From Gemmatimonadota bacterium (lineage in GTDB: Bacteria; JAAXHH01): a stretch of 64,000 nt of DNA. The stretch covers positions 93,951 through 157,950 of the forward strand of contig VXMB01000009.1 of the NCBI GenBank assembly GCA_009841265.1, in the 5' to 3' direction. Below, piece after piece: positions 1 through 19,748 of this stretch (its first letter is position 1; every line of letters starts with the position of its first letter). The notes beneath the pieces were generated by a model that saw only the letters and a list, made by a program, of their open reading frames with translations, had not been told where the DNA came from and did no database searches. Both the position numbers and the translations under genes were made by a program.

Positions 1-2279
1 AACTCTCCGAGCAGACCTTCGTAGTCGATGATGAATCCGTGCTCCTTCTCGATGCCGTCCTCCTCGAAGAGCCGGTTCACGCGCATGATCGCCTGCAGAA
101 GGTTGTGCTCTCGGATCGAGCGGCAGAGGTACAGCACCGTGTTCCGAGGTGCGTCGAAGCCGGTCAGGAGCTTTGAGACGACAATGAGGATCTCCGGATG
201 CTCCGAGTGCTTGAACGCGTCGATGATCTGACGGTTGTATTCGCCCTCCGTCCCGTACCGGTCCATCATGCGCTCCCAGAACGCGCCGACCACGCTCTTG
301 GAGTCGTGATCCACGTCCTCGTTGCCCTCGTGGTCGTCGGGAGGCGAGATGACGATCTCGCTAGTCACATGGCCGATCTCGTCGAGGATCTCCTTGTACC
401 GGCACGCAGCTGCCTTTGATGGTGCGACGAGTTGCGCCTTGAACCCACTGCCCTGCCAGTGTTGCCGGTAATGTTCGGAGATGTCGAACGCCCTGGCGTG
501 TATCGCCTGTTCGGTGCGTGCCAGCGCGTTCAAGCGGGAGTACTTCTGCTTCAGATCCGCCCGCTGTTGCTCGCTCAGGCCTTCGCTCAGTTTGTCGAAC
601 CAGGAGTCGATGGTTTCTGGGTTGATTTGCTGTTCGACGATCCTTCCTTCGTAAAGCAGGGAGACGACCGCCTCGTCCCGGACCGCTTGGTCGATCGCGT
701 ATCTGTGTATCAGTCCTCCGAAGGTGGTCAGGGTGTTCTTCTCCCTCTGCAGAAGAGGCGTTCCCGTGAAACCAAGGTAACAGGCCTTTCCAAGAATACG
801 TCGCATCTTGCCGGCCAACTGTCCGAACCCACCGTGCGATCCCGTCTGCGTACGGTGGCTTTCGTCTACCAGTACGAATACGTTGGGATCCTCATCGATC
901 ACCTGGCCGACGCGCGAAGCCGTGTCGAACTTGTTGATGATTGTCGTAACCAGCGGCGTCTTGTTCTGAATCAGGGAGATCAGGTGTGTGCCGGTCGTGG
1001 CCCGAACGGGTTCCATTTCGCACGACTTGAAGGTGTCCTTGATCTGCCGGTCTAGATCGTCACGGTCCGTAACAATGACAATGCGCGGGTTGGAGATCGT
1101 CTCTTCCAGGGCCAGCGCTTTGCCCAACATGACCATGGTAAGCGACTTACCGGTCCCGGGCGTGTGCCATATCACACCGCCCCTGCGGACATCCTGCAAA
1201 TCGAACTGCCTGACCCGTTCCACGGCTCTGCGCACGGCAAAGTACTGCTGGTGCCTGGCTATCTTACGTTCACCGCCATCGAACACGGTGAAACGCCGCA
1301 CAAGGTCCAGCAGGCGCTCGCGTCGGCACAGGGCGTAAAGCGCTTCGTCCTGCTCGGTGACCTGCCGTCCTTCTCCGGCGATAGCAGCCTCGTAGTGCGA
1401 CCGCGCAGAGGCGAGATTGCCCGAGTAGACCGCTTCGGCTTCGGCCACAGCCAGGGGTCGATCGACGAGATCTCGAAGGGGATCCCGGGGCGGATACTCC
1501 GCCTGTTCGTCCGGATCGAACACTACATCCGGTGGCAGTATTTCAGTATCCTCCAATTCGTTCTGCAGGGTAGCATGCGATCCCTCAACGGTAGTCTCCT
1601 CCTCCCGCCAGGTCTGCCAGAACCTACTCTGCGTGCCCACCGTCGCATAACGGGCCTCCCGTCGGTTCATGGACAACAGAAGCTGCGCGAAGTGGAACAG
1701 GTGTGGAATCTCGTCTTCTCTCTGGTATCCGATCAACTGGCTGTCGGCCTTCTTCAGACGCTCCGTCGGCCGCTTGTTCTCGATTACGATGAAGGGGATC
1801 CCGTTGACGAAGGCGACGATATCGCATCGGCGGGTCCTGGTACTGCTGGTCCGCTCCACCGTCATTTCAGCCGTCACGTGATAGGTGTTGTTGTCCGGAT
1901 TCTCCCAGTCGACGTAGCGGAAGGAATAGGATTTCGAATCGCCGTCGATGGTCTTGGTGATCGTCGTGCCGAGTACCAGCGTATCGTATACGTCCTGATT
2001 GGTTCCGCGCAGCCCCTTGAGCCGGTCCGGCGTCGGTTTCAGTCGTCGCATCGCCTCGTGGGCATCTTCGAGATTGAAGGGATACTCCTTGCCCCGGTGG
2101 GTAAAGCGGTTGAGCTTCAGAAGTTGATCAGCCAGTACGTCATCGAGCGTGACGTTGCGCAACCTGTCTCCGCGTAACCGCAACGCTTCTTCTGGAGAAA
2201 GTGGCGTAAAACCCATCGCAACCAGAAGATGCAGGGCCGGTATCTGGGACTGGTGTTTTTCAGTGGCGTCAAAGATCAT
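1..2279 (-). CDS. hsdR: Type I restriction enzyme R subunit HsdR, N-terminal ~760 aa; the C-terminus runs off the window start
   Basis: Reverse-strand translation from the ATG at 2279-2277 reads MIFDATEKHQSQIPALHLLVAMGFTPLSPEEA... Helicase motif I 'VIWHTPGTGKSLTMV' lies at ~1130-1180 and the DEAH box 'LVDESHRTQ' at ~840-900. The gene is absent from the ORF track because its stop codon is off-window. Confidence 0.9.
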   Translation of the reverse strand, partial: MIFDATEKHQSQIPALHLLVAMGFTPLSPEEALRLRGDRLRNVTLDDVLADQLLKLNRFTHRGKEYPFNLEDAHEAMRRLKPTPDRLKGLRGTNQDVYDTLVLGTTITKTIDGDSKSYSFRYVDWENPDNNTYHVTAEMTVERTSSTRTRRCDIVAFVNGIPFIVIENKRPTERLKKADSQLIGYQREDEIPHLFHFAQLLLSMNRREARYATVGTQSRFWQTWREEETTVEGSHATLQNELEDTEILPPDVVFDPDEQAEYPPRDPLRDLVDRPLAVAEAEAVYSGNLASARSHYEAAIAGEGRQVTEQDEALYALCRRERLLDLVRRFTVFDGGERKIARHQQYFAVRRAVERVRQFDLQDVRRGGVIWHTPGTGKSLTMVMLGKALALEETISNPRIVIVTDRDDLDRQIKDTFKSCEMEPVRATTGTHLISLIQNKTPLVTTIINKFDTASRVGQVIDEDPNVFVLVDESHRTQTGSHGGFGQLAGKMRRILGKACYLGFTGTPLLQREKNTLTTFGGLIHRYAIDQAVRDEAVVSLLYEGRIVEQQINPETIDSWFDKLSEGLSEQQRADLKQKYSRLNALARTEQAIHARAFDISEHYRQHWQGSGFKAQLVAPSKAAACRYKEILDEIGHVTSEIVISPPDDHEGNEDVDHDSKSVVGAFWERMMDRYGTEGEYNRQIIDAFKHSEHPEILIVVSKLLTGFDAPRNTVLYLCRSIREHNLLQAIMRVNRLFEEDGIEKEHGFIIDYEGLLGE

Positions 2280-2436: not shown

Positions 2437-2636
2437 CTACCGTCGCATGTGATCAGTCTTATAATCGTATCCTTCGTCCCATTCGAGTTTGCCGAACAGA
2501 TCAAGAATCCGTTTTTGCTCTCGACGTGTAATGAATTCCCGCAAGGCCTTTTCGAGAGTCGTGTCTTCGTCTGCCCACCACTGACGCGCATCGCCTGTTC
2601 GAGAAGATCGGGGTCTACTAATAGATATATCAACAT
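2437..2636 (-). pseudogene. Frameshifted remnant of a VapB-family (PF09957 / DUF2191-like) type II antitoxin, with no cognate vapC
   Basis: Reading frame A from the ATG at 2636 gives MLIYLLVDPDLLEQAMRVSGGQTKT. The +1 frame continues TTLEKALREFITRREQKRILDLFGKLEWDEGYDYKTDHMRR and stops at 2439-2437. Joined, the two pieces match the consensus of this antitoxin family (..DIDDELL.EAMRLTG.KTK.EAV.LALRELV.RR.Q..LLDL.GK..W.GDLD..R). A 1-nt deletion inside an Arg codon near ~2561 explains the frame change. Downstream there is only a 10-codon stub (MVTHDILYIK*) before hsdR. Confidence 0.6.
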
Positions 2637-2640
2637 ACCA

Positions 2641-5600
2641 CTATTCCTTGAAGAGATCGTTACTAGAACTGTCCGTACGCTCGCAGTTATAAAGGCCTGC
2701 TGGCGGTGTTTTCCATTTTCCTTTGGGTGGTTTGTCGCGAAAGTCTTGGCTTGGACGTTTTATCAGTTTTAGAGGATCGATTTCGGCAAATGCTATCGAA
2801 GCCTGCGGTTGTCCGTGCAGGTGGAATACTTCTCGCTCATAAGGTTTCTTGAACGGCATAAAGAAACTACTTCCGCCAAACTGACCGTTGTTTACCAGGA
2901 TAAATCCTTGGAACATGTGGTAATGAATCGCTTCAGCCATTCGGTCGAACGTGCCAACATCTTTGTTTAGCGCACAGATGATATAAAGGTCGCTTCTCGT
3001 ACGGAGATCCGCGGCAAGCGCTAGGTCGGTCGCATCGTAGCAGATTGAGGCTGTCAGACGAAGTGGTTGTTCTTCTTCGGCCTCTTTCTGCCAATGGTAG
3101 TTGATCAGCCATTGCGCAGGCCTAAATCCCACTGGTTTAGGATTTAGGTTACGTTCAGCCTCCGTAATATGTGCTTTTCCCTGTTCGATTCGTTTGATTT
3201 GGAGTCCATCTGATCTGCTCTTGTCAGGAATTAACCAGAGAGCACTGTTTATTATCGGAGAACCTGGATGTTGTTCTCTGTGGTGATAAACTTGACCTAA
3301 TAACACAATACACCGGTACTGCTGCACAAATGGCCGTAGATACGTATCTATATCTTGAGGATGAATGGAAAGTTCGGGGAACACAAGAAGGTTGATGCCC
3401 CTTTCATTAGGGCTGCTTATATGTGACTCGCGTACACGTAACTGTTGGTAGACACCTGCCATTATCGCAGATAGATGTTTCCGGCACTCGGACCGTATCT
3501 CATGCGCACAGAGTTCCGGTTTATCGCTGTGCAGGTTGTAATGTTCGAAACTGGGAACCACAGACTGAACGATCCCTATGCGGAGGGCGCGATCGCGTCT
3601 AATTTCATGGGGACGGTGTGGCAATGGTGCTGACTGTTCCAGAATCGTTGTGGATGTATACTGGCCCCTTTTTTTCCTGATGTGTTCCAGTTGGGATGAC
3701 ACTGTACTAAGTAGTTCGTGGACCGGGACGATATCGTGTCCCACCCCCGCCCCTGGCCAGCGCAACAGATCGAAGAGCAGATTCTCTGTGAACTGCGAGA
3801 TTGGTAGCCAATCTGGACCAAACGCATCTCGTCCTTGATAGCCGGCATATCTTTGCTGTTCCCAGTGCGAGACTGGCTTGGTATATCTCGGATAGCTTCT
3901 GCTGCGAGTTTTAGATATATTGAAAAGAAATTCGTTCGAACCTCGAAGAGCGTAACGAAGAAGGAGTCCTGTATTGAATCGTTGGCGATCTTCTGTGTTT
4001 ACACACCAATCGGGTGAATTGAAGAACGGAGTCATATATTCAATGATCGACTTATGTTCAATCGAATCATCTTCAATCTTACCGAATTCATAGCCTTTAG
4101 GTTTTGGATGCTTCAGAGAGAACCAAATACCGGCAGGAACTAACGGCTCAGCGAATATAGTCGAATCTTGACCGAGTAGGTATTCCGCCAGTAACAGGAG
4201 ATTCTCCTCCTCATGAAAAGGGTTTTCAGCATCGGGGGAGAGATCGGATAATGTCTGCTTCTTCGGAGATTCTCCATCAAGTGGGATTATAGACTGACCG
4301 TTGTTTTCAGACGGTTCGAGCCCAAGGTGAATGGCAAGTCGTCTAACATCTTTCCCTGATCCATGGCTGGCTGTTGTCCAGAGCTTCTTCGCGACCGAGG
4401 GTGAAATCGAATTCACTTTCAACAGATAATCTCGAGAAACCCGACTGGTAGACACAAGTTTATCAGGTTCTTGGATTCCAAATGCCGTGATAGTCTCTAC
4501 CAGGAATATCGAACGCTGCTCTAGGTCGTAGGAAACACTGCTGCGAATGAACTTGAGAAGTCTCCAATAGTCGCTTAGTAAGACTCCCCCTTTTCGGGTA
4601 TCTGTTGTGGGCACGGTCTCTGGAATTTGATTTCTTGTAGCGAGATAGAGAAATACCTGCTGCATTAAATACCAAGGAAATCGTGTACCGGACCTAGATT
4701 TCGTAATGAATGCAGAGACTATAGACTTTGCTTCTCTGACAAGCCTTTCATGGTATTTCTCAATGGAAACCTCGCTTGGCAGAGAATCAACTTCTACATC
4801 TGGGACCATACCGGTTTCCGTCGCTCCTACTCGAAAGAGTTCCGCAAGGCAATAAAGCATGATCTCCCGTCTCGACCCTCGAGTTTCTGGCGATTTCCAG
4901 CCTTGTCGGAGCAATTGTAGTACTTTATCCAAGAACTGGTGACTTGGATAGAAATCAAGAGCAATACGAAGTAAGCGTACATGCCCTGGATTCCTTATCC
5001 ACTCACCAATGAGTAGAGATGAAAAGGCTTTCCCCCTTTCATCCAATTGAGATTTCGTAAGTGCAAAGTTCGGGACAGATTCCGTGGTATCCTGGTCTTC
5101 ATCCATGGATTCAGGAATTTCCTCATCCGGTAAAAGCGGCCGCAGGGAGCGAAACGTGCGTCTCATCCTCCCGGCGGCGAAGCGCGCTACCGTTTCATCC
5201 GGCATGTCGGGAACCCCGTCCAGAGTTTCATCGAGTTTACCTATTTCCGAAGTAGCGTAGTGCTGCTGTCTGTAGAAGAAGCTTTCTATGGCACCGATTA
5301 ATTCGGTTCCGAGGGTTGCGTCAAATACACCGGAAGCCCGTTTCTGAATCCGCGCAGCTTCTTGCGATTGTTTAACGAGCAGACGATTTTCTCTGGTCTC
5401 GATTGTTGCGGTAGTCTTTTCATCGTCCGGAATTTCAAGACCGTGTGCCTCCGAAGAAAGAAGATCATTCATCGTCCTGATTACGTGTTGTCGTACATCT
5501 TCTTCGTTAATTGACAAACTCGTAGGAAAACTCATGACCAGTCGAAAATCGTCCACGTAGTAACAGATATCTTCCAGATACAATTGTTCCAATTCAGTTA

Positions 5601-6573
5601 CATCACCTAGTTTCTGTTGAACGAGTTTCTTTTTAAGTATTTGATCCAAATCGATAAGTGCGATGTTCGCGAAGAACCCACTGGCCACGAGTCCCTGCGG
5701 AAGAACCACCTCCATAAATCCATCATCGATGTCATTCGCTTCGGCATACCTTAGTGCTCTGTCTCGATCCGAGAAATGCCAGCGCCAATTCAAAACACGT
5801 TCAGCAAGATCGAAGAAAGAACTTTCATCCGATGATTCTTGAAACTCTCGTAGTTTTGGGTGCAACATTGAGGGACGCACCCGATCATAGAATTTCGATA
5901 AATCGGATTGAACTACCGCGACATCCAAGTCCTTGTTTTCACGCGACTTCAATTCGTTCTTTACGTGCCTTGGTCGCTCCAGAAACTTCCTATAGTCTTG
6001 GAAATAGCCGCGGTACAGTTTAGAACTTCCCCAGCGGTTCCTCAGGTTGGATTCCCCGACTTTATCGCAAAGTAGCCTGTGGCCGTACGCGAGGATCTTT
6101 TTTCGATTATTGCCCCTTGTCACGTCCAGACGGGGGTCACCAAGCCTAGTCTCAACTCGGTCCGCAAGGCAGAGCAAAATAGCAGTCGCCACAACCTGAT
6201 CTCCCAGATCAACGTGCGCAAGTGGACGGATGTAGTCCTTTTTCCTCTGATCCTTCTGACTCATAGGATTTGATTTTGACCTTATCTTCTTTACCCTTTC
6301 CGGTCTCCATCTTTCGTTCTCGTCGATCTCCCATCGTTGGTTCTTTGGAGCGGGTACGAACCTCAAGGGTCGAGGTTCCCACTGATCTGGCTTCTGCAGA
6401 CGAGCCTGTACTTCACCTAGGAACGAGGATACGCGCAATGATTGCATATCGATCCCAAGAGTATCGGCGTACCAGCTATGAGACCGCAGATAGGAAGATG
6501 TTTTCTTCCAAGCCTGCATCAGGACACATTCCATTCCGAGGTCCCTGAGGGTTGGTCTTAAAGTCTGTTGCAT
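2641..6573 (-). CDS. Defense-associated reverse transcriptase fused to a C-terminal nitrilase (C-N hydrolase) domain, 1310 aa; DRT type 1-like (UG1 class of UG/Abi RTs; UG5/UG6 cannot be excluded without alignment)
   Basis: The N-terminal ~420 aa carry ordered RT motifs: 'RPLRFVPAPK' (motif 1), 'IRPLAHVDLGDQVVATAILLCLADRVE' (motif 2), 'VVQSDLSKFYDRV' (motif A), 'VLPQGLVASGFFANIAL' (motif B') and 'CYYVDDFRLV' (catalytic YxDD). The middle ~550 aa are helical-repeat-like, with no catalytic motif. The C-terminal ~290 aa have the nitrilase Glu-Lys-Cys triad in context: 'LLVFPELSI', 'QGKAHITEAE', 'LTASICYDATD'. GC content (~45%) is clearly lower than the flanks. Confidence 0.85.
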   Translation of the reverse strand: MQQTLRPTLRDLGMECVLMQAWKKTSSYLRSHSWYADTLGIDMQSLRVSSFLGEVQARLQKPDQWEPRPLRFVPAPKNQRWEIDENERWRPERVKKIRSKSNPMSQKDQRKKDYIRPLAHVDLGDQVVATAILLCLADRVETRLGDPRLDVTRGNNRKKILAYGHRLLCDKVGESNLRNRWGSSKLYRGYFQDYRKFLERPRHVKNELKSRENKDLDVAVVQSDLSKFYDRVRPSMLHPKLREFQESSDESSFFDLAERVLNWRWHFSDRDRALRYAEANDIDDGFMEVVLPQGLVASGFFANIALIDLDQILKKKLVQQKLGDVTELEQLYLEDICYYVDDFRLVMSFPTSLSINEEDVRQHVIRTMNDLLSSEAHGLEIPDDEKTTATIETRENRLLVKQSQEAARIQKRASGVFDATLGTELIGAIESFFYRQQHYATSEIGKLDETLDGVPDMPDETVARFAAGRMRRTFRSLRPLLPDEEIPESMDEDQDTTESVPNFALTKSQLDERGKAFSSLLIGEWIRNPGHVRLLRIALDFYPSHQFLDKVLQLLRQGWKSPETRGSRREIMLYCLAELFRVGATETGMVPDVEVDSLPSEVSIEKYHERLVREAKSIVSAFITKSRSGTRFPWYLMQQVFLYLATRNQIPETVPTTDTRKGGVLLSDYWRLLKFIRSSVSYDLEQRSIFLVETITAFGIQEPDKLVSTSRVSRDYLLKVNSISPSVAKKLWTTASHGSGKDVRRLAIHLGLEPSENNGQSIIPLDGESPKKQTLSDLSPDAENPFHEEENLLLLAEYLLGQDSTIFAEPLVPAGIWFSLKHPKPKGYEFGKIEDDSIEHKSIIEYMTPFFNSPDWCVNTEDRQRFNTGLLLRYALRGSNEFLFNISKTRSRSYPRYTKPVSHWEQQRYAGYQGRDAFGPDWLPISQFTENLLFDLLRWPGAGVGHDIVPVHELLSTVSSQLEHIRKKRGQYTSTTILEQSAPLPHRPHEIRRDRALRIGIVQSVVPSFEHYNLHSDKPELCAHEIRSECRKHLSAIMAGVYQQLRVRESHISSPNERGINLLVFPELSIHPQDIDTYLRPFVQQYRCIVLLGQVYHHREQHPGSPIINSALWLIPDKSRSDGLQIKRIEQGKAHITEAERNLNPKPVGFRPAQWLINYHWQKEAEEEQPLRLTASICYDATDLALAADLRTRSDLYIICALNKDVGTFDRMAEAIHYHMFQGFILVNNGQFGGSSFFMPFKKPYEREVFHLHGQPQASIAFAEIDPLKLIKRPSQDFRDKPPKGKWKTPPAGLYNCERTDSSSNDLFKE

Positions 6574-6956
6574 GCCACTTGCCCTTAAAGGTGCGCTAGC
6601 GACTAGAATGGTTTAGCACTCTCAATTGGCTTATTGTGTTTTATCCCTTAGGACCGAATTGAGATCAGCTTGCCTATGTCACAATAACCGCTGAATACGG
6701 CTTTCTAAATTCCGATCGATTGCGCTGAGAAAGACGGTAGTGTTTTGCCGTGGTTTCTAAGCAACCAGTCTGTCGGCTTTCCACGGTCAAATCGCTATAT
6801 TGCCTCCTTAAGGTAATAACTTCGTAACAGCGGATATTTGATGTAATATCGAACTATTACTTTCCAATCTGCTGGTACGATAGGACATTCGTTGACATAG
6901 ATCGACTGGTACCGCACCCGTTTAAAAACGAATCAAGAATTGAGATTGCGTTCGCA
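6574..6956 (-). promoter_or_regulatory. 383-bp AT-rich non-coding leader upstream of the RT-nitrilase; a candidate promoter and/or structured ncRNA
   Basis: No ORF of 60 aa or more on either strand. It contains a perfect Shine-Dalgarno 'TAAGGAGG' (minus strand, ~6800) that is not followed by an ATG (only a TTG 12 nt downstream, opening a 44-codon frame). It also has 'ggtaccag' direct repeats and several short inverted repeats. Several other DRT types place a template ncRNA 5' of the RT. Confidence 0.3.
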
Positions 6957-7298
6957 CTACCACCTAAGTCGCTTACTATATGTATATCGCGATGGCTCAA
7001 ATTTACCATAATGCGCGAACTCGATCATTCTGACACATCCAAATACGATTTCGTGCAAGAATTCCACACTTACCAAGGGCATCTTAAAACTTCGTTGTTC
7101 TTCGATTAGGAAGTATCTCCAGTCGAACGAACCAATGTAATCATCACCTATCTTGTTTGGGTCGCCATCCAGATTTGTAAGGAAGTCCTGCAAAGTCTTA
7201 AACGGAAACGTCTTCCCCACAAATGCCTTGTAATCGGAATAGTACTCACGCAACGTTTCTTTGTCTTCCGATTCGAACAAATCGAACAGGATAGTCAA
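6957..7298 (-). CDS. Hypothetical protein, 113 aa with a TTG start; probably the C-terminal part of a ~204-aa protein whose frame is split from the upstream ORF
   Basis: Low-GC ORF reading MTILFDLFESEDKETLREYYSDYKAF... Its frame stays open upstream (WQKKVPRKHS) through the A8 tract. The TTG start at 7298-7296 overlaps the stop of the upstream ORF by 2 nt. No recognizable motif. Confidence 0.5.
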   Translation of the reverse strand: MTILFDLFESEDKETLREYYSDYKAFVGKTFPFKTLQDFLTNLDGDPNKIGDDYIGSFDWRYFLIEEQRSFKMPLVSVEFLHEIVFGCVRMIEFAHYGKFEPSRYTYSKRLRW

Positions 7299-7570
7299 CG
7301 AGTGTTTACGTGGTACTTTTTTTTGCCACGTACATACAAAAGTGCCTTGAACGACTCTTCAACGAGGAAATAACCAGCGACAACGTAACCCCAAGCCTGC
7401 GCCACCTCATGACTAGGTAGTAAATCAGGAGTCACAGGGCATTTCTTGTACTTTTCTTGCTCTTTCTCCAAAGCTGTATCTAACCCAGTCATCATCCAGA
7501 TCGGATCTTTGAAGCCTACAATCTGTTTTGTTGCCACGATAGAACTCCCTTTATCGTTCGTACCCATCAT
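7295..7570 (-). CDS. Hypothetical protein, 91 aa; probably the N-terminal part of the same ~204-aa protein
   Basis: Starts 6 nt after the hsdS stop (7577), so it is probably co-transcribed with hsdM-hsdS. Ends ...ALLYVRGKKKYHVNTR*, passing in frame through the A8 run. No recognizable motif. Confidence 0.5.
   Translation of the reverse strand: MMGTNDKGSSIVATKQIVGFKDPIWMMTGLDTALEKEQEKYKKCPVTPDLLPSHEVAQAWGYVVAGYFLVEESFKALLYVRGKKKYHVNTR
7316..7322 (-). other. A_AAA_AAG heptamer (dnaX-type -1 frameshift slippery motif) inside an A8 homopolymer, at the junction of the two small ORFs
   Basis: Minus strand reads ggc-aaa-aaa-aag-tac in the zero frame of the 91-aa ORF. A -1 slip (or one extra A) continues directly into the 113-aa ORF frame: ...VRGKKK|VPRKHSLTILFDLFE... 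Confidence 0.5.
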
Positions 7571-7576
7571 CCATCA

Positions 7577-8767
7577 TTACCTGCTATTGTTCCCATTTAG
7601 CAATATCTGAATTAGTCCGCGTTTTTGATTCTTCAGAGCACGTACCTCTTTATCCACACACTTAATTTCATCCTTAAAAGCGTCGAGTAAGTCAGCCTGC
7701 TTTTCCTGAAGTTTAATAGGTGGCAAGAAGATTCTGATTTTCGAAAATGCGGGGAATTTCAAATTCCATGTATCACTCGTTAGGCCCTGTGAATACCGTT
7801 GGAAATCGAATACCATTCGACGGGCTTTAAACAGATGGGAAGCATAGCGTGCTATAATCTTACTCTGATCGGGTGTGACGACAGTATAAGCAGGGCTGAC
7901 GATTCCACGAAGTGCTGAAAGACCTGATACTCCCTGCCACATTCGCATAGTGTTATATCCGAGATCACCCCGCAAAATCAGTTTGTACCGTGACTTATCT
8001 TTGGTAGAAGTGTCTTTCCGGTCGACCTCGTTACGGTCAATAACTCCTTCAGACATAGTGATGCTTAATAACGTATCCCAACTATTACCTGTTTGAATGC
8101 GCTCACGGAACAGATCACCCAACTCTACCTCAAGCCAAGTTCTAGGGTGCCCCGGAGAGGAAGGATGGCAGGGATCAAAAAAACCTTGGCTGACTAATCT
8201 GTATTGTACTGTCTTGGCCTGCCTCAATGCCTCCAACTTCTCAGTCGCCTCATCCCACGTTCGCAGTATTTCCCCAATCTTACGTTGCTCGGAAACTGGC
8301 GGTAGAAACACCGAGACCCTGGCGAGCTCCGCCTCGTGGATGTGAACAACAGAGTGCCCCTTGCCCAACCTCGACTTCTGCCTGACCGCGTCATCCGCAT
8401 TCAGCGCATGGGCCAGGAAGGTCGGATCTTGTCCATGTCCGCGTAGGATAATCGTATCTCCTCCTGCAACCGCGGTACCATTCCCCAACCATGCGACGGA
8501 CTTGCCGATTTCCCCGGCGGTTTCTCCCGAAGACGCGAAGATGATGTCGCCGTGGTGCAACTGCGTCGCTCTTCTTGCCGTATCCTCGGATACGAACGAG
8601 GTAAGTTCGTCGGTCACGTCGCCGTAGGTCGTGTAGAGATCGCCGTACCTCAGACAGGGAATTCCAGATTGAACCAGATCAGCTCTGGTTATGCCGCGTC
8701 CCTTGATGAACTTGCCCAGGTCTGACAGGCAAATCCTACCTTCTCGATGTATTGGAACCTTTTCCAT
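7577..8767 (-). CDS. hsdS: Type I R-M specificity subunit HsdS, 396 aa, two target-recognition domains
   Basis: MEKVPIHREGRICLSDLGKFIKG... (target-recognition domain 1); central conserved 'VFLPPVSEQRKIGEIL...LEALRQ'; C-terminal 'IFLPPIKLQEKQADLL...LKNQKRGLIQILL'. The 3' half is low-GC. Confidence 0.85.
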   Translation of the reverse strand: MEKVPIHREGRICLSDLGKFIKGRGITRADLVQSGIPCLRYGDLYTTYGDVTDELTSFVSEDTARRATQLHHGDIIFASSGETAGEIGKSVAWLGNGTAVAGGDTIILRGHGQDPTFLAHALNADDAVRQKSRLGKGHSVVHIHEAELARVSVFLPPVSEQRKIGEILRTWDEATEKLEALRQAKTVQYRLVSQGFFDPCHPSSPGHPRTWLEVELGDLFRERIQTGNSWDTLLSITMSEGVIDRNEVDRKDTSTKDKSRYKLILRGDLGYNTMRMWQGVSGLSALRGIVSPAYTVVTPDQSKIIARYASHLFKARRMVFDFQRYSQGLTSDTWNLKFPAFSKIRIFLPPIKLQEKQADLLDAFKDEIKCVDKEVRALKNQKRGLIQILLNGNNSR

Positions 8768-8878: not shown

Positions 8879-10396
8879 TCAGACCTCAACACCAAGCTCC
8901 TTGAGATATTGCTTCATCCGCTTGCGCACTTCGACCAGTTCGGCTTCGATCTGGTCGATCTCCTTCTGGACAGCGGCTACGTCGATCTCTTCCTCCGGCT
9001 CGAAGGTATCGACGTAGCGGGGGATATTGAGATTAAAATCGTTTTCGACAATTTCCTCCGGACTGGCCACGTGGGCATATTTCTCGGTTTCGGTCCGCGT
9101 CCGGAACGTCTCCAAGACCCTTTCGAGATGTCCTTCATCCATGACGTTCTGCGTCTTGCCCGGGATGAATTCCTTGCTGGCGTCTATGAACAGCACGTCC
9201 TTCCGGTCTTTGTTTTTTCCGCCCTCCTCACGCGACCGGTCGAAGACCAGGATGGCCACGGGAATGCCCGTCGTGGTGAAGAGGTTCGCGGGCAGGCTGA
9301 CCACGGCGTCGAGCAGGTTTCCTTCGATCAGCGCCCGGCGGATCCGGCCTTCGGCGCCGCCCCGGAACAGCACGCCGTGCGGAACGATCACTGTGACACG
9401 GCCGCTGCCCCGCTTGGCGATCTCGATCATGTGCGTGATGAAGCCGAAGTCAGCCTTCGACTTGGGCGGCACGCCGCGCCAGTACCGGGCGAAGGGATCG
9501 TTCGGCGCATTCTCCGCACCCCATTTGTCCAGCGAGAAGGGGGGATTGGCCACCACTACGTCGAACTTCATCAGGTGATCTCCCTCGACGAGGGCCGGGC
9601 TGTTGAGCGTGTCGCACCATTCGATGCGCGCGGCGTCCTTCTCGTGCAGGAACATGTTCATCCGTGCCAGGGCCCAGGTCGCCCCGTTGACTTCCTGACC
9701 GAAGAGGGCGTAGTTGCCCGAATCGACTTCGTTGGCTGCGCGGATCAGCAGCGAACCAGAACCGCAGGCCGGGTCGCATATCGTGTTGCCGGGTTTCGGG
9801 GCAGCAAGACCGGCGAGCAGCCGGGATATAGCGGCCGGCGTGTAGAATTCGCCGGCCTTCTTGCCGGCGTCTGAAGCGAAGCGCGATATGAGGTAGAGGT
9901 AACACTCCCCTATTACGTCTTCGGACACCTTCGACGGGCGCAGATCGAGAGCCGGATTGGCGAAATCCTCGAGGAGGTTGACGAGGCGCCGATTACGGTC
10001 CTTCACCTGACCGAGGTTGGCTTCCGAGTTGAAGTCGATGTTGCGGAAAACGCCTTCGAGCTTCGAACGATTCGCGTCCTCGATCTTCTCCAGGGCGATG
10101 TTAATCAACTCGCCGATATTCGCTTCTCCGCGCCGTTCATACAAATCGTAGAAACTTGCGCCGTCGGGCAGGACGAAACGCTCGCGTTCCAGTCTGCGAC
10201 GGATCCTAACCTCGTCGTCCCCGTATCGCTGGCGGTAGCTTTCCACATGGTCGTTCCACAGGTCCGAGATGTACTTGAGGAACAGCGTCACGAGGATGTA
10301 GTCCTTGTATTGACCGGCATCGACGACGCCCCGAAAGGTGTCACAGGCGGCCCAGGCGGTCTGGTTGACCCGCTGCTGCATGGTCTGGTTTGTCAT
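8879..10396 (-). CDS. hsdM: Type I R-M N6-adenine DNA methyltransferase subunit HsdM, 505 aa
   Basis: N6_Mtase motifs: 'ICDPACGSGSLLIRA' (AdoMet binding, motif I) and 'VVANPPFSLDKW' (motif IV, NPPF). HsdM-like N-terminus 'ILVTLFLKYISD'. Confidence 0.9.
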   Translation of the reverse strand: MTNQTMQQRVNQTAWAACDTFRGVVDAGQYKDYILVTLFLKYISDLWNDHVESYRQRYGDDEVRIRRRLERERFVLPDGASFYDLYERRGEANIGELINIALEKIEDANRSKLEGVFRNIDFNSEANLGQVKDRNRRLVNLLEDFANPALDLRPSKVSEDVIGECYLYLISRFASDAGKKAGEFYTPAAISRLLAGLAAPKPGNTICDPACGSGSLLIRAANEVDSGNYALFGQEVNGATWALARMNMFLHEKDAARIEWCDTLNSPALVEGDHLMKFDVVVANPPFSLDKWGAENAPNDPFARYWRGVPPKSKADFGFITHMIEIAKRGSGRVTVIVPHGVLFRGGAEGRIRRALIEGNLLDAVVSLPANLFTTTGIPVAILVFDRSREEGGKNKDRKDVLFIDASKEFIPGKTQNVMDEGHLERVLETFRTRTETEKYAHVASPEEIVENDFNLNIPRYVDTFEPEEEIDVAAVQKEIDQIEAELVEVRKRMKQYLKELGVEV

Positions 10397-10401
10397 TTTT
10401 T

Positions 10402-11088
10402 CTACCTTTCCTCAATCAAGCCTGATTCGTTATCTGCTATCTGATCTCCAATACATCCTTTGAGAAGCAATCGGTTTAAGTCTCTTCGCCTGTCCGCAGC
10501 GAGTACGGTCAACGCGTGTTCGCGTTCTGCCAGACCGTCCAGGGTCGTAATCTTGCGTTGCAATTCAAGCGAAGGGATTTTGATTTCCAGACTCTCGACG
10601 CTGGACCGCGACACCATGCGTATGGTCGTCTTCAAAGCGACACGATCGAAGTATCGCTGGGATGGGGTTAGGTTGATGATCCATGCAAGGTATTCGGGTT
10701 GGATGAGGTCTGTTATAGGGCGCAAGACGTAAAGCGGTAACACGGCCACGGCCCTTTCGGTGAATCGTCCATCGAGCGCTACAGCTATATTCCTATCACC
10801 CCTGGATCGAAACAGCACGTCGCCTTGACCGACTAAGAATCTGTCCGTTTGACCTTTGAATTCGACACGGGTCAATCTTGCGGGCGCTATCTTGCCGTTT
10901 TGCGGAAAGTCGCCCAGTTGTATTGCCAGCGAACCGCTATGTGTTGCAGGTTGAAGGCGGCCACGGGCTGTGTACCCGCTATGGACGGAACAAATATCGC
11001 CAACGCGCTTATGTAATAAATGATATTTCATGAATACAGAATGTATATACCGGAGTTGATTTGTCAATAAAAAATCGTAGTTGGTCAA
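10402..11088 (-). CDS. Half-size HsdS-like specificity protein (one target-recognition domain plus one conserved coiled region), 228 aa. The true start is probably the internal ATG at 11030 (MKYHLLHKRVGDI...).
   Basis: 'VGDICSVHSGYT' is an N-terminal motif typical of target-recognition domains. The conserved 'IKIPSLELQRKITTLDGL...' parallels the 'LPPxxEQxKI' repeats of the full hsdS. It ends 5 nt before the hsdM start. Confidence 0.65.
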   Translation of the reverse strand: MTNYDFLLTNQLRYIHSVFMKYHLLHKRVGDICSVHSGYTARGRLQPATHSGSLAIQLGDFPQNGKIAPARLTRVEFKGQTDRFLVGQGDVLFRSRGDRNIAVALDGRFTERAVAVLPLYVLRPITDLIQPEYLAWIINLTPSQRYFDRVALKTTIRMVSRSSVESLEIKIPSLELQRKITTLDGLAEREHALTVLAADRRRDLNRLLLKGCIGDQIADNESGLIEER

Positions 11089-19523: not shown

Positions 19524-19596
19524 GGGGCTGTAGCTCAGCTGGGAGAGCGCATGAATGGCATTCATGAGGTCAGCGGTTCGATCCCGCTCAGCTCCA
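19524..19596 (+). tRNA. tRNA-Ala (anticodon GGC), 73 nt, no encoded CCA
   Basis: Hand-folded cloverleaf. Acceptor stem GGGGCTG/CAGCTCC with the G3:U70 Ala identity pair; D-arm GCTC-AGCTGGGA-GAGC; anticodon arm CATGA-ATGGCAT-TCATG; T-arm AGCGG-TTCGATC-CCGCT; discriminator A. Confidence 0.9.
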
Positions 19597-19748
19597 CTGC
19601 CTGCTGGTGGCGACCTCATCCTTAAGTGGCGGTCCCTGGTGGATTGATCGAGGTCCCGGCCAGCTTGGCCAGTTTGGTCAGCTTGGCCAGCGCATCGATT
19701 TGAAGTGATTCATCAAACACAGTCGGTTATTCGTATACAGCGCGCACT

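Follow-up and report, generated by a model that had tools for sequence, protein, structure and literature searches.

In this study, we found that a gene on the minus strand of a 64,000-nt stretch of a Gemmatimonadota contig (VXMB01000009.1, positions 93,951 to 157,950; assembly GCA_009841265.1), hereafter the window, encodes a 1310-amino-acid (aa) protein that is assigned by its sequence to the DRT1 family of reverse transcriptases (RTs), also known as UG1 and belonging to class 3 of the UG/Abi RTs. DRT1 is a known anti-phage family with a solved structure, and the window gene, drt1, adds one more member to it. We consider it very probable that drt1 is a functional single-gene DRT1, working as published for the characterized protein and carried as cargo in a type I restriction-modification (R-M) operon, in the slot that separates hsdS from hsdR. 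An earlier note, made from the letters of the window, had pointed to this open reading frame (ORF) as a DRT type 1-like RT-nitrilase fusion inside an R-M operon; the ORF exists exactly as it was described there, at 2641-6573 on the minus strand, and drt1 does lie between hsdS and hsdR in the same orientation. The DRT1 clade of the window is divergent and environmental, is spread over at least 10 phyla of mostly uncultured bacteria, lacks Drt1b, and repeatedly occupies this same slot.

The family assignment comes from profile matches that cover the protein from end to end. The PADLOC Drt1a profile PDLC03745 was the best of all profiles (E=0, 1066 bits), with residues 4-1294 aligning to positions 5-1176 of its 1176 in one stretch, and a second PADLOC Drt1a model, PDLC02171, scored 381 bits (E=2e-114). 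The next RT family in PADLOC, RT_UG5-nitrilase, reached 106 bits (4e-31) and matched the nitrilase end only (residues 1056-1293); the UG29 profile scored 14.5 bits, the class 1 UG/Abi profiles scored about 38 bits or less, and the RTasNitrilase profile matched the nitrilase domain at 7.1e-64. Pfam returned RVT_1 only, over residues 210-391 with an E-value of 4.2e-7, just over the gathering score. The sole match in a PDB search was chain A of 9YFD, 'Defense-associated reverse transcriptase 1' (E=5.9e-102). A group II intron RT identity was rejected, the NCBIfam model TIGR04416 giving 20.6 bits against a cut-off of 300. No intron, retron or diversity-generating retroelement (DGR) RNA was detected near drt1 with Rfam at gathering thresholds, the sole match in the window being a distant tRNA-Ala, and this absence is as expected for a template-free enzyme. 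The DRT type 1/UG1 assignment of the earlier note is therefore borne out: a profile search places Drt1a first, and not a group II intron, retron or DGR RT.

The polypeptide is built from an RT domain, a priming linker, a presumed alpha-helical repeat domain, a nitrilase (carbon-nitrogen hydrolase) domain and a C-terminal lid (Table 1). RT motifs 1, 2, A, B' and YVDD stand in the correct order as had been read from the letters, and their coordinates were verified. Between the RT and the nitrilase lies a segment of about 600 aa comprising the linker and the helical domain, with which the spacer of about 550 aa in the earlier note is consistent. The middle domain aligns only weakly to 9YFD directly (window residues 507-648 with 9YFD residues 474-601); its roughly 490 aa fall within the one continuous alignment to the Drt1a profile, and the total length of 1310 aa fits the DRT1 range of 1200-1300 aa.

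For the comparison of individual residues, residues 12-1224 of 9YFD were rebuilt from HMMER alignments to the window protein and to a plasmid homologue from Photobacterium toruni, which was used as a bridge and is 52% identical to 9YFD in the N-terminal region. In the rebuilt sequence the overlapping pieces agree, the lengths fit, and all residue numbers cited in PMC13275509 are reproduced; the exact source sequence of 9YFD was not found in the plasmid collection. A MAFFT alignment was then made of 122 sequences, 118 of them database homologues and the others the window protein, 9YFD and two homologues from plasmids. The residues that are required in the characterized DRT1 are, by this alignment, all in place in the window protein, and they are conserved in nearly every sequence of the family (Table 1). 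The YVDD box and the nitrilase Glu, Lys and Cys that had been noticed in FPE, KAHI and ICYD contexts are retained and correspond to catalytic residues in the solved DRT1 structure, with Glu1140 as the fourth residue of the nitrilase site.

The reading frame of drt1 (3933 nt) is uninterrupted, and an identical 1310-aa protein is encoded on a 310-kb metagenome scaffold, ENGE20-1_SAMN12347671 scaffold_16. The start has been called differently in the two sources, giving 1310 aa on the ENA scaffold and 1297 aa from Met14 in the database entry P0001 (the region concerned is 6535-6573, minus strand); the longer form is favoured because homologues have the first 13 residues in common as a consensus. 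The ratio of nonsynonymous to synonymous substitution rates (dN/dS) is 0.20 against an 87% identical relative and 0.17 against an 81% identical relative, which indicates that drt1 is under purifying selection. Its closest relative in a reference genome, with 83% identity, is found in a metagenome-assembled genome (MAG) of Candidatus Latescibacterota. The GC content of drt1 is 47.4%, whereas hsdR has 58.7%, hsdM 59.8% and the remainder of the window 63.2%. Thus, drt1 is indeed lower in GC than its flanks, but the deficit amounts to 11-16 points and not to the 20 or so that had been estimated. The low-GC tract extends from about 2280 to about 8170 and takes in the 3' half of hsdS.

The mechanism of DRT1, which the earlier note regarded as still uncharacterized, has since been described together with the structure 9YFD by Neville et al. 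(Nat Struct Mol Biol, June 2026; PMC13275509). In the characterized protein, Ser402 is the priming residue on which covalent A-rich DNA adducts of about 17-30 nt are built, and these adducts lead to nitrilase-mediated tetramers and then to stacked filaments. The last 19 residues are domain-swapped and shut the nitrilase active site, giving a dormant state. Each of the substitutions D324N/D325N, S402A, C1116A, K1219A and A1223F abolishes defence, and the mutations by which T4 escapes fall in the Dda helicase, which is needed but does not suffice. An adjacent drt1b accompanies about 18% of drt1 genes, and the characterized protein functions without Drt1b (PMC13275509). For the window protein, all biochemical steps are transferred from this work by homology; what has been established here is its family, its residues, the purifying selection on its gene and its genomic context. 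Without a template, the RT domain would join deoxynucleotides to the hydroxyl group of Ser414 in the same protein, producing short A-rich single-stranded DNA (ssDNA) covalently bound to the protein. These adducts would drive nitrilase-mediated tetramerization followed by stacking into filaments, in which the KWKTPPAG tail of one protomer would cover the nitrilase site (Glu1067, Lys1133, Glu1140 and Cys1178) of another, so that the enzyme would be assembled but dormant. Phage infection would free the nitrilase, a step which in the T4 model needs the phage ssDNA helicase Dda, and the freed nitrilase would act on an essential substrate so that the infection aborts. In the simplest scenario, drt1 is here a Drt1b-free single-protein system, probably co-transcribed with the R-M operon, which may provide a second and independent layer of defence.

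The placement of drt1 was followed across its clade by scanning one genome per GTDB species with a 27-sequence alignment as query. This gave 39 loci, all in MAGs, from Latescibacterota, Gemmatimonadota, Gamma- and Alphaproteobacteria, Syntrophia, Syntrophomonas, Planctomycetota, Verrucomicrobiota, Acidobacteriota, Nitrospirales, Binatia and Chlorobi. Nesting was scored by tblastn with the window Hsd proteins together with ORF maps. Among the 24 loci with enough flank on both sides, 15 are nested (20 of 38 overall), with hsdM upstream, hsdR and ygjP downstream, and all on the same strand. The unlabelled ORFs of about 400 aa just upstream of the clade DRT1s are HsdS by Pfam, and in five sub-branches the DRT1 start is offset from the hsdS stop by -4, +4, +17, +22 or +34 nt. 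The HsdR proteins of the nested loci fall into four families that are about 25% identical to each other and 72-90% identical within, the latter range being maintained across different phyla in the two larger families. Each HsdR family has its own DRT1 sub-clade, the sub-clades being mutually 50-57% identical, and the distance matrices of DRT1 and HsdR correlate (Mantel p=0.0005). In one HsdR family, loci from different phyla share 73-88% identity over the whole cassette, and this implies that the cassette was transferred horizontally as a unit.

The gap between hsdS and hsdR in these loci also holds other cargo, namely RhuM, AbiEi/AbiEii, GmrSD, Fic and YhcG genes. In one sub-clade, a type IV restriction gene of the GmrSD type (DUF262/DUF1524, about 705 aa) stands beside drt1 in the gap, and this pairing resembles the TgvAB arrangement of Vibrio cholerae. 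In several nested loci, a short ORF just after drt1 reads by eye as the N-terminus of HsdR (for example, MPTPGDHKTVQARILEYAEAIGW). The loci with such an ORF continue with more cargo and then a full hsdR, which suggests that cargo was inserted by recombination at the hsdR 5' end. Defence genes embedded in type I R-M loci have been reported before, as in the case of PrrC (PMC12707154) and TgvAB (PMC11411939) and by Payne et al. 2024 (bioRxiv 10.1101/2024.01.29.577857). In these three works, in Mestre et al. 2022 and in full-text literature searches, however, we found no mention of nesting of DRT1 or UG1.

Table 1. Positions of drt1, its encoded domains and residues, and neighbouring genes; nucleotide positions are those of the window unless a locus is named, and conservation refers to the 122-sequence alignment.
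Feature	Nucleotides	Strand	Residues	9YFD equivalent	Details
drt1	2641-6573	-	1-1310		ATG start, 1310 aa and stop; RT, priming linker, alpha-helical repeat domain, nitrilase, C-terminal lid
RT domain	5374-6573	-	~1-400	12-347	Pfam RVT_1
RT motif 1			74-77		PAPK
RT motif 2			116-127		RPLAHVDLGDQV
RT motif A			contains Asp224		VVQSDLSKFYDRV
Motif A Asp			Asp224	D212	conserved in 121/122
RT motif B'			291-303		LPQGLVASGFFAN
RT motif C	5548-5559	-	339-342		YVDD
Motif C Asp pair			Asp341, Asp342	D324, D325	conserved in 122/122
Priming linker			~401-500
Predicted priming Ser codon	5332-5334	-	Ser414	S402	context IQKRASGVFDA; Ser in 122/122
Middle domain, presumed alpha-helical repeat	3604-5073	-	~501-990		within end-to-end Drt1a profile match
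C-N hydrolase (nitrilase) domain	2719-3603	-		981-1224	E=4e-47
Nitrilase tetrad	Cys codon 3040-3042		Glu1067 (VFPELS), Lys1133 (EQGKAHI), Glu1140, Cys1178 (ASICYDAT)	E1017, K1077, E1084, C1116	122/122 each
C-terminal lid motif	2695-2718	-	1286-1293		KWKTPPAG, then 17-aa tail (2644-2694)
Lid residues			Lys1288, Pro1291, Ala1292	K1219, P1222, A1223	122/122, 121/122, 119/122
Half-size hsdS-like ORF	10402-11088	-			one target-recognition domain; directly upstream of hsdM; Pfam Methylase_S 8e-4, PADLOC Specificity_I 1.5e-14
hsdM	8879-10396	-			type I methyltransferase subunit; Pfam N6_Mtase 1.7e-97, HsdM_N 3e-28; TIGR00497 281 bits, above cut-off
hsdS	7577-8767	-			two target-recognition domains; Pfam Methylase_S; PADLOC Specificity_I 4.7e-59
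orf91	7295-7570	-			half of one frameshifted gene with orf113
orf113	6957-7298	-			other half of the frameshifted orf91 gene
Spacer	6574-6956				383 nt between orf113 and drt1
OLD/AriA-like ATPase-Toprim gene remnant	6690-6806	-			3' end, ~115 nt
vapB-like antitoxin gene	2437-2636	-			begins 4 nt past the drt1 stop
hsdR, first 759 codons	1-2279	-			runs off the window start; Pfam HSDR_N, SWI2_SNF2, ResIII, T1R_D3-like
GmrSD-type gene, locus L021	12321-14435				equivalents in L025, L027 and L028
GmrSD-type gene, locus L037	5796-7898
HsdR N-terminus-like ORF, locus L009	11828-12382
HsdR N-terminus-like ORF, locus L018	11825-12149
HsdR N-terminus-like ORF, locus L025	11878-12222
HsdR N-terminus-like ORF, locus L028	11813-12127

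In the window operon hsdM, hsdS and hsdR are all intact, and on the source contig hsdR has a full length of 1110 aa and is followed by the ygjP-like gene. For the half-size hsdS, the gene call on the source contig gives 209 aa, compared with 228 aa from the first TTG. L004 and L005, the two closest metagenomic relatives, have the same chromosomal neighbours and the same operon, and an ORF of about 200 aa resembling the half-size hsdS holds the same place in both. Nucleotide homology with L005 ends at about 8222 and picks up again only at 6574; between hsdM and 6794 only a 79-bp patch (8212-8290) matches L004, with which homology extends from 6794 to 2458 and takes in vapB, drt1 and 220 nt upstream of drt1. 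GC content is 44.4% in the 3' half of hsdS (7577-8170) versus 54.9% in the 5' half. The low GC and the lack of homology to L004 and L005 suggest that the second target-recognition domain of hsdS (7577-8222) was swapped alongside an exchange of cargo. In both relatives, an intact OLD/AriA-like ATPase-Toprim gene encoding 638-639 aa (5952-7868 in L004 and 5943-7862 in L005; PADLOC AriA 1.3e-26, Old 6.5e-16) lies between hsdS and drt1. The window retains a remnant of this gene, whose translation RFDRGKPTDWLLRN..LPSFS matches the C-terminus of the L004 ATPase (tblastn, 46% identity over 39 aa, E=1.6e-5). The window lineage has replaced the ATPase gene together with the second target-recognition domain of hsdS.

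No neighbour of drt1, be it the ATPase, vapB or orf91/orf113, is a conserved DRT1 partner. The OLD/AriA-like ATPase was rejected as an obligatory partner since only the remnant is present here and the gene is missing in the other sub-clades. The vapB-like gene has lost 1 nt between 2562 and 2561, as judged against the copies in L005 (65 aa) and L004 (51 aa), which are intact; its joined frames match Pfam VapB_antitoxin (1.1e-7), and the deletion may represent a real pseudogene or an assembly error. It is an orphan without a vapC toxin gene, and is intact in L004, L005 and L007. When joined, orf91 and orf113 have 388 protein matches of about 193 or about 287 aa, with 60-74% identity over about 95% of the joined length, and no match in Pfam, PADLOC or NCBIfam. 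Elsewhere this family adjoins a CBASS CD-NTase with Cap15, transposases, or a methyltransferase (MTase)-HNH gene, and these neighbours make it a candidate defence or mobile-element gene. A role of orf91/orf113 as a DRT1 accessory was rejected, because the segment is not common to the closest relatives and the family is unrelated and occurs without DRT1.

A Drt1b partner was likewise not found: all small ORFs of the window miss the Drt1b profiles, under which a control ORF downstream of the Photobacterium drt1 scores 6.6e-65, and no hydrophobic ORF follows drt1 in 25 clade loci. A non-coding RNA or template near drt1 was rejected, Rfam at gathering thresholds giving only a tRNA 13 kb away. This tRNA-Ala (GGC, 19524-19597, plus strand) is the sole Rfam or ARAGORN match in the 64-kb window; standing about 8 kb outside the R-M/DRT1 cluster, it does not readily suggest itself as the integration site. 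A scan for sigma-70 promoters and terminators was uninformative, with counts below the shuffled expectation. The only promoter-like sites on the minus strand in the sigma-70 scan are upstream of the half-hsdS and hsdM genes; the host probably does not use promoter and terminator signals of the E. coli type.

Several observations weigh against the view that drt1 is a functional DRT1 working exactly as published. The window protein is only 28.7% identical to 9YFD overall (33% in the RT, 39% in the nitrilase, 20% in the helical domain and 17% in the priming linker), and with such low identity quaternary details could differ. The 'pseudoknot' contacts R1210, I1212 and Y1215 of 9YFD are without clear conservation in the alignment, 6 aa are inserted ahead of the lid of the window protein in the pairwise comparison with 9YFD (more in the family alignment), and 17 residues follow the lid where 9YFD has 5. 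The Ser414 call comes from the multiple alignment bridged by the Photobacterium homologue, whereas pairwise phmmer left the linker unaligned. In addition, with frameshifts in both neighbour genes the defence island could be under loss. At its extreme, the last point would make drt1 a decaying or inactive relic in an eroding island, its defence function lost. Three damaged neighbours, namely vapB with its deletion, the frameshifted orf91/orf113 and the ATPase remnant, are in favour of such decay, but in a metagenome scaffold the frameshifts may themselves be assembly errors, and hsdM, hsdS and hsdR are all intact. Moreover, the frame of drt1 is unbroken, its catalytic, priming and lid residues are intact, and its dN/dS is low, so that we hold a relic to be very improbable. 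It is even harder to credit that the protein belongs to another RT-nitrilase lineage (UG5-large/DRT11 or UG29), or is the RT of a group II intron, retron or DGR, instead of UG1. UG1 nitrilases have been reported to be nested in the broader UG5 nitrilase radiation (PMC13436386), and there are also the RT_UG5-nitrilase match and the weak group II intron RT match. However, the UG5 match is confined to the nitrilase end at a tenth of the Drt1a bit score, the UG29 and group II intron scores are lower still, Rfam shows no RNA of the retroelement kinds, and the DRT1-specific priming Ser and lid motif are present.

The recurrent nesting raises another alternative, namely that the environmental, Drt1b-less clade is functionally coupled to type I R-M in the manner of PrrC in EcoprrI, lying latent under HsdMS/HsdR or monitoring them, or being triggered by anti-restriction. 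DRT1 of this clade would then be an integral co-transcribed R-M module, in which the DNA-adduct/nitrilase switch is wired to R-M as a PrrC-like, RT-based back-up; it might, for example, sense phage anti-restriction, or the ssDNA or helicase activity of failed restriction. The nesting recurs in most loci with enough flank, the start of drt1 keeps within a few tens of nucleotides of the hsdS stop in five sub-branches, and to each of the four HsdR families belongs a DRT1 sub-clade of its own. Also in favour are the absence of nesting among the examined gammaproteobacterial DRT1s of the Drt1b type, the established role of PrrC and PARIS as guardians of R-M (PMC12707154), and the AriA/OLD-like ATPase that adjoins DRT1 in the closest relatives. 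Position alone, however, does not show coupling, because the hsdS-hsdR slot is a general cargo hotspot, with RhuM, AbiEi/AbiEii, GmrSD, Fic and YhcG genes found in it, and embedded genes are frequent in type I R-M generally. The correlated divergence of DRT1 and HsdR is also expected from simple co-transfer, and about 40% of clade members are not nested. Furthermore, the characterized DRT1 needs no partner in E. coli, and the phage determinant known for it is a helicase rather than an anti-restriction protein. On balance we regard functional coupling as unlikely, and an integral PrrC-like module as similarly doubtful.

Taken by itself, the window gene settles no open question, since the family already has a structure and a working mechanistic model. 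The retention of the essential DRT1 residues in a clade about 29% identical to 9YFD and spread over at least 10 phyla nevertheless supports the generality of the DNA-adduct/nitrilase mechanism. That members of the clade stand right behind hsdS time and again, in several type I R-M families unrelated to each other, offers a concrete, testable lead to the natural regulation or triggering of DRT1, and this recurrent nesting of the clade is the one lead worth following from the window gene.

Among known systems, the DRT1 of 9YFD is the closest point of comparison. Like the window protein, it has RT, priming linker, helical domain and nitrilase in one polypeptide, with the same RT Asp residues, priming Ser, Glu-Lys-Glu-Cys tetrad and lid Lys and Ala, and it is a single-gene system without Drt1b. 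In the family tree the window protein and this gammaproteobacterial DRT1 are parted by a long branch; the window protein also differs in its origin from an uncultured environmental bacterium and in its place inside a type I R-M operon. The Klebsiella pneumoniae DRT type 1, named as reference in the earlier note (Gao et al. 2020, via PMC9226505 and PMC8632793), and the gammaproteobacterial loci with Drt1a and Drt1b share family and domain order with the window protein; for Klebsiella DRT1, however, the membrane protein Drt1b has been reported to be required (PMC9226505, PMC8632793). In the plasmid loci of Photobacterium toruni, Vibrio tubiashii and Pseudoalteromonas, a small gene is present downstream of drt1, which matches the Drt1b profile in Photobacterium (6.6e-65) and overlaps the drt1 stop in Vibrio and Pseudoalteromonas; the window and its clade are without one. 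These plasmid DRT1s are located in generic defence islands beside CRISPR, Qat or viperin genes, and are not nested in R-M.

More distant systems share single traits with the window gene. UG5-large/DRT11 of Sinorhizobium meliloti also joins an RT to a nitrilase at the C-terminus, and the two catalytic domains are both required for an abortive-infection-like defence that needs no membrane protein (PMC13436386), but it belongs to another RT family, whose profile covers only the nitrilase part of the window protein (106 versus 1066 bits). AbiK, Abi-P2 and DRT4 of class 1 UG/Abi carry out template-independent, protein-primed DNA synthesis with an RT followed by a helical repeat domain (via PMC13275509); unlike DRT1, they are without a nitrilase effector and differ in priming residue and oligomeric state. 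PrrC in the EcoprrI type I R-M system and TgvAB in that of Vibrio cholerae resemble the window locus in having a second defence gene between the specificity and restriction genes, although the proteins are unrelated to DRT1. The PrrC anticodon nuclease is controlled by the R-M complex (PMC12707154), whereas TgvAB acts independently (PMC11411939).

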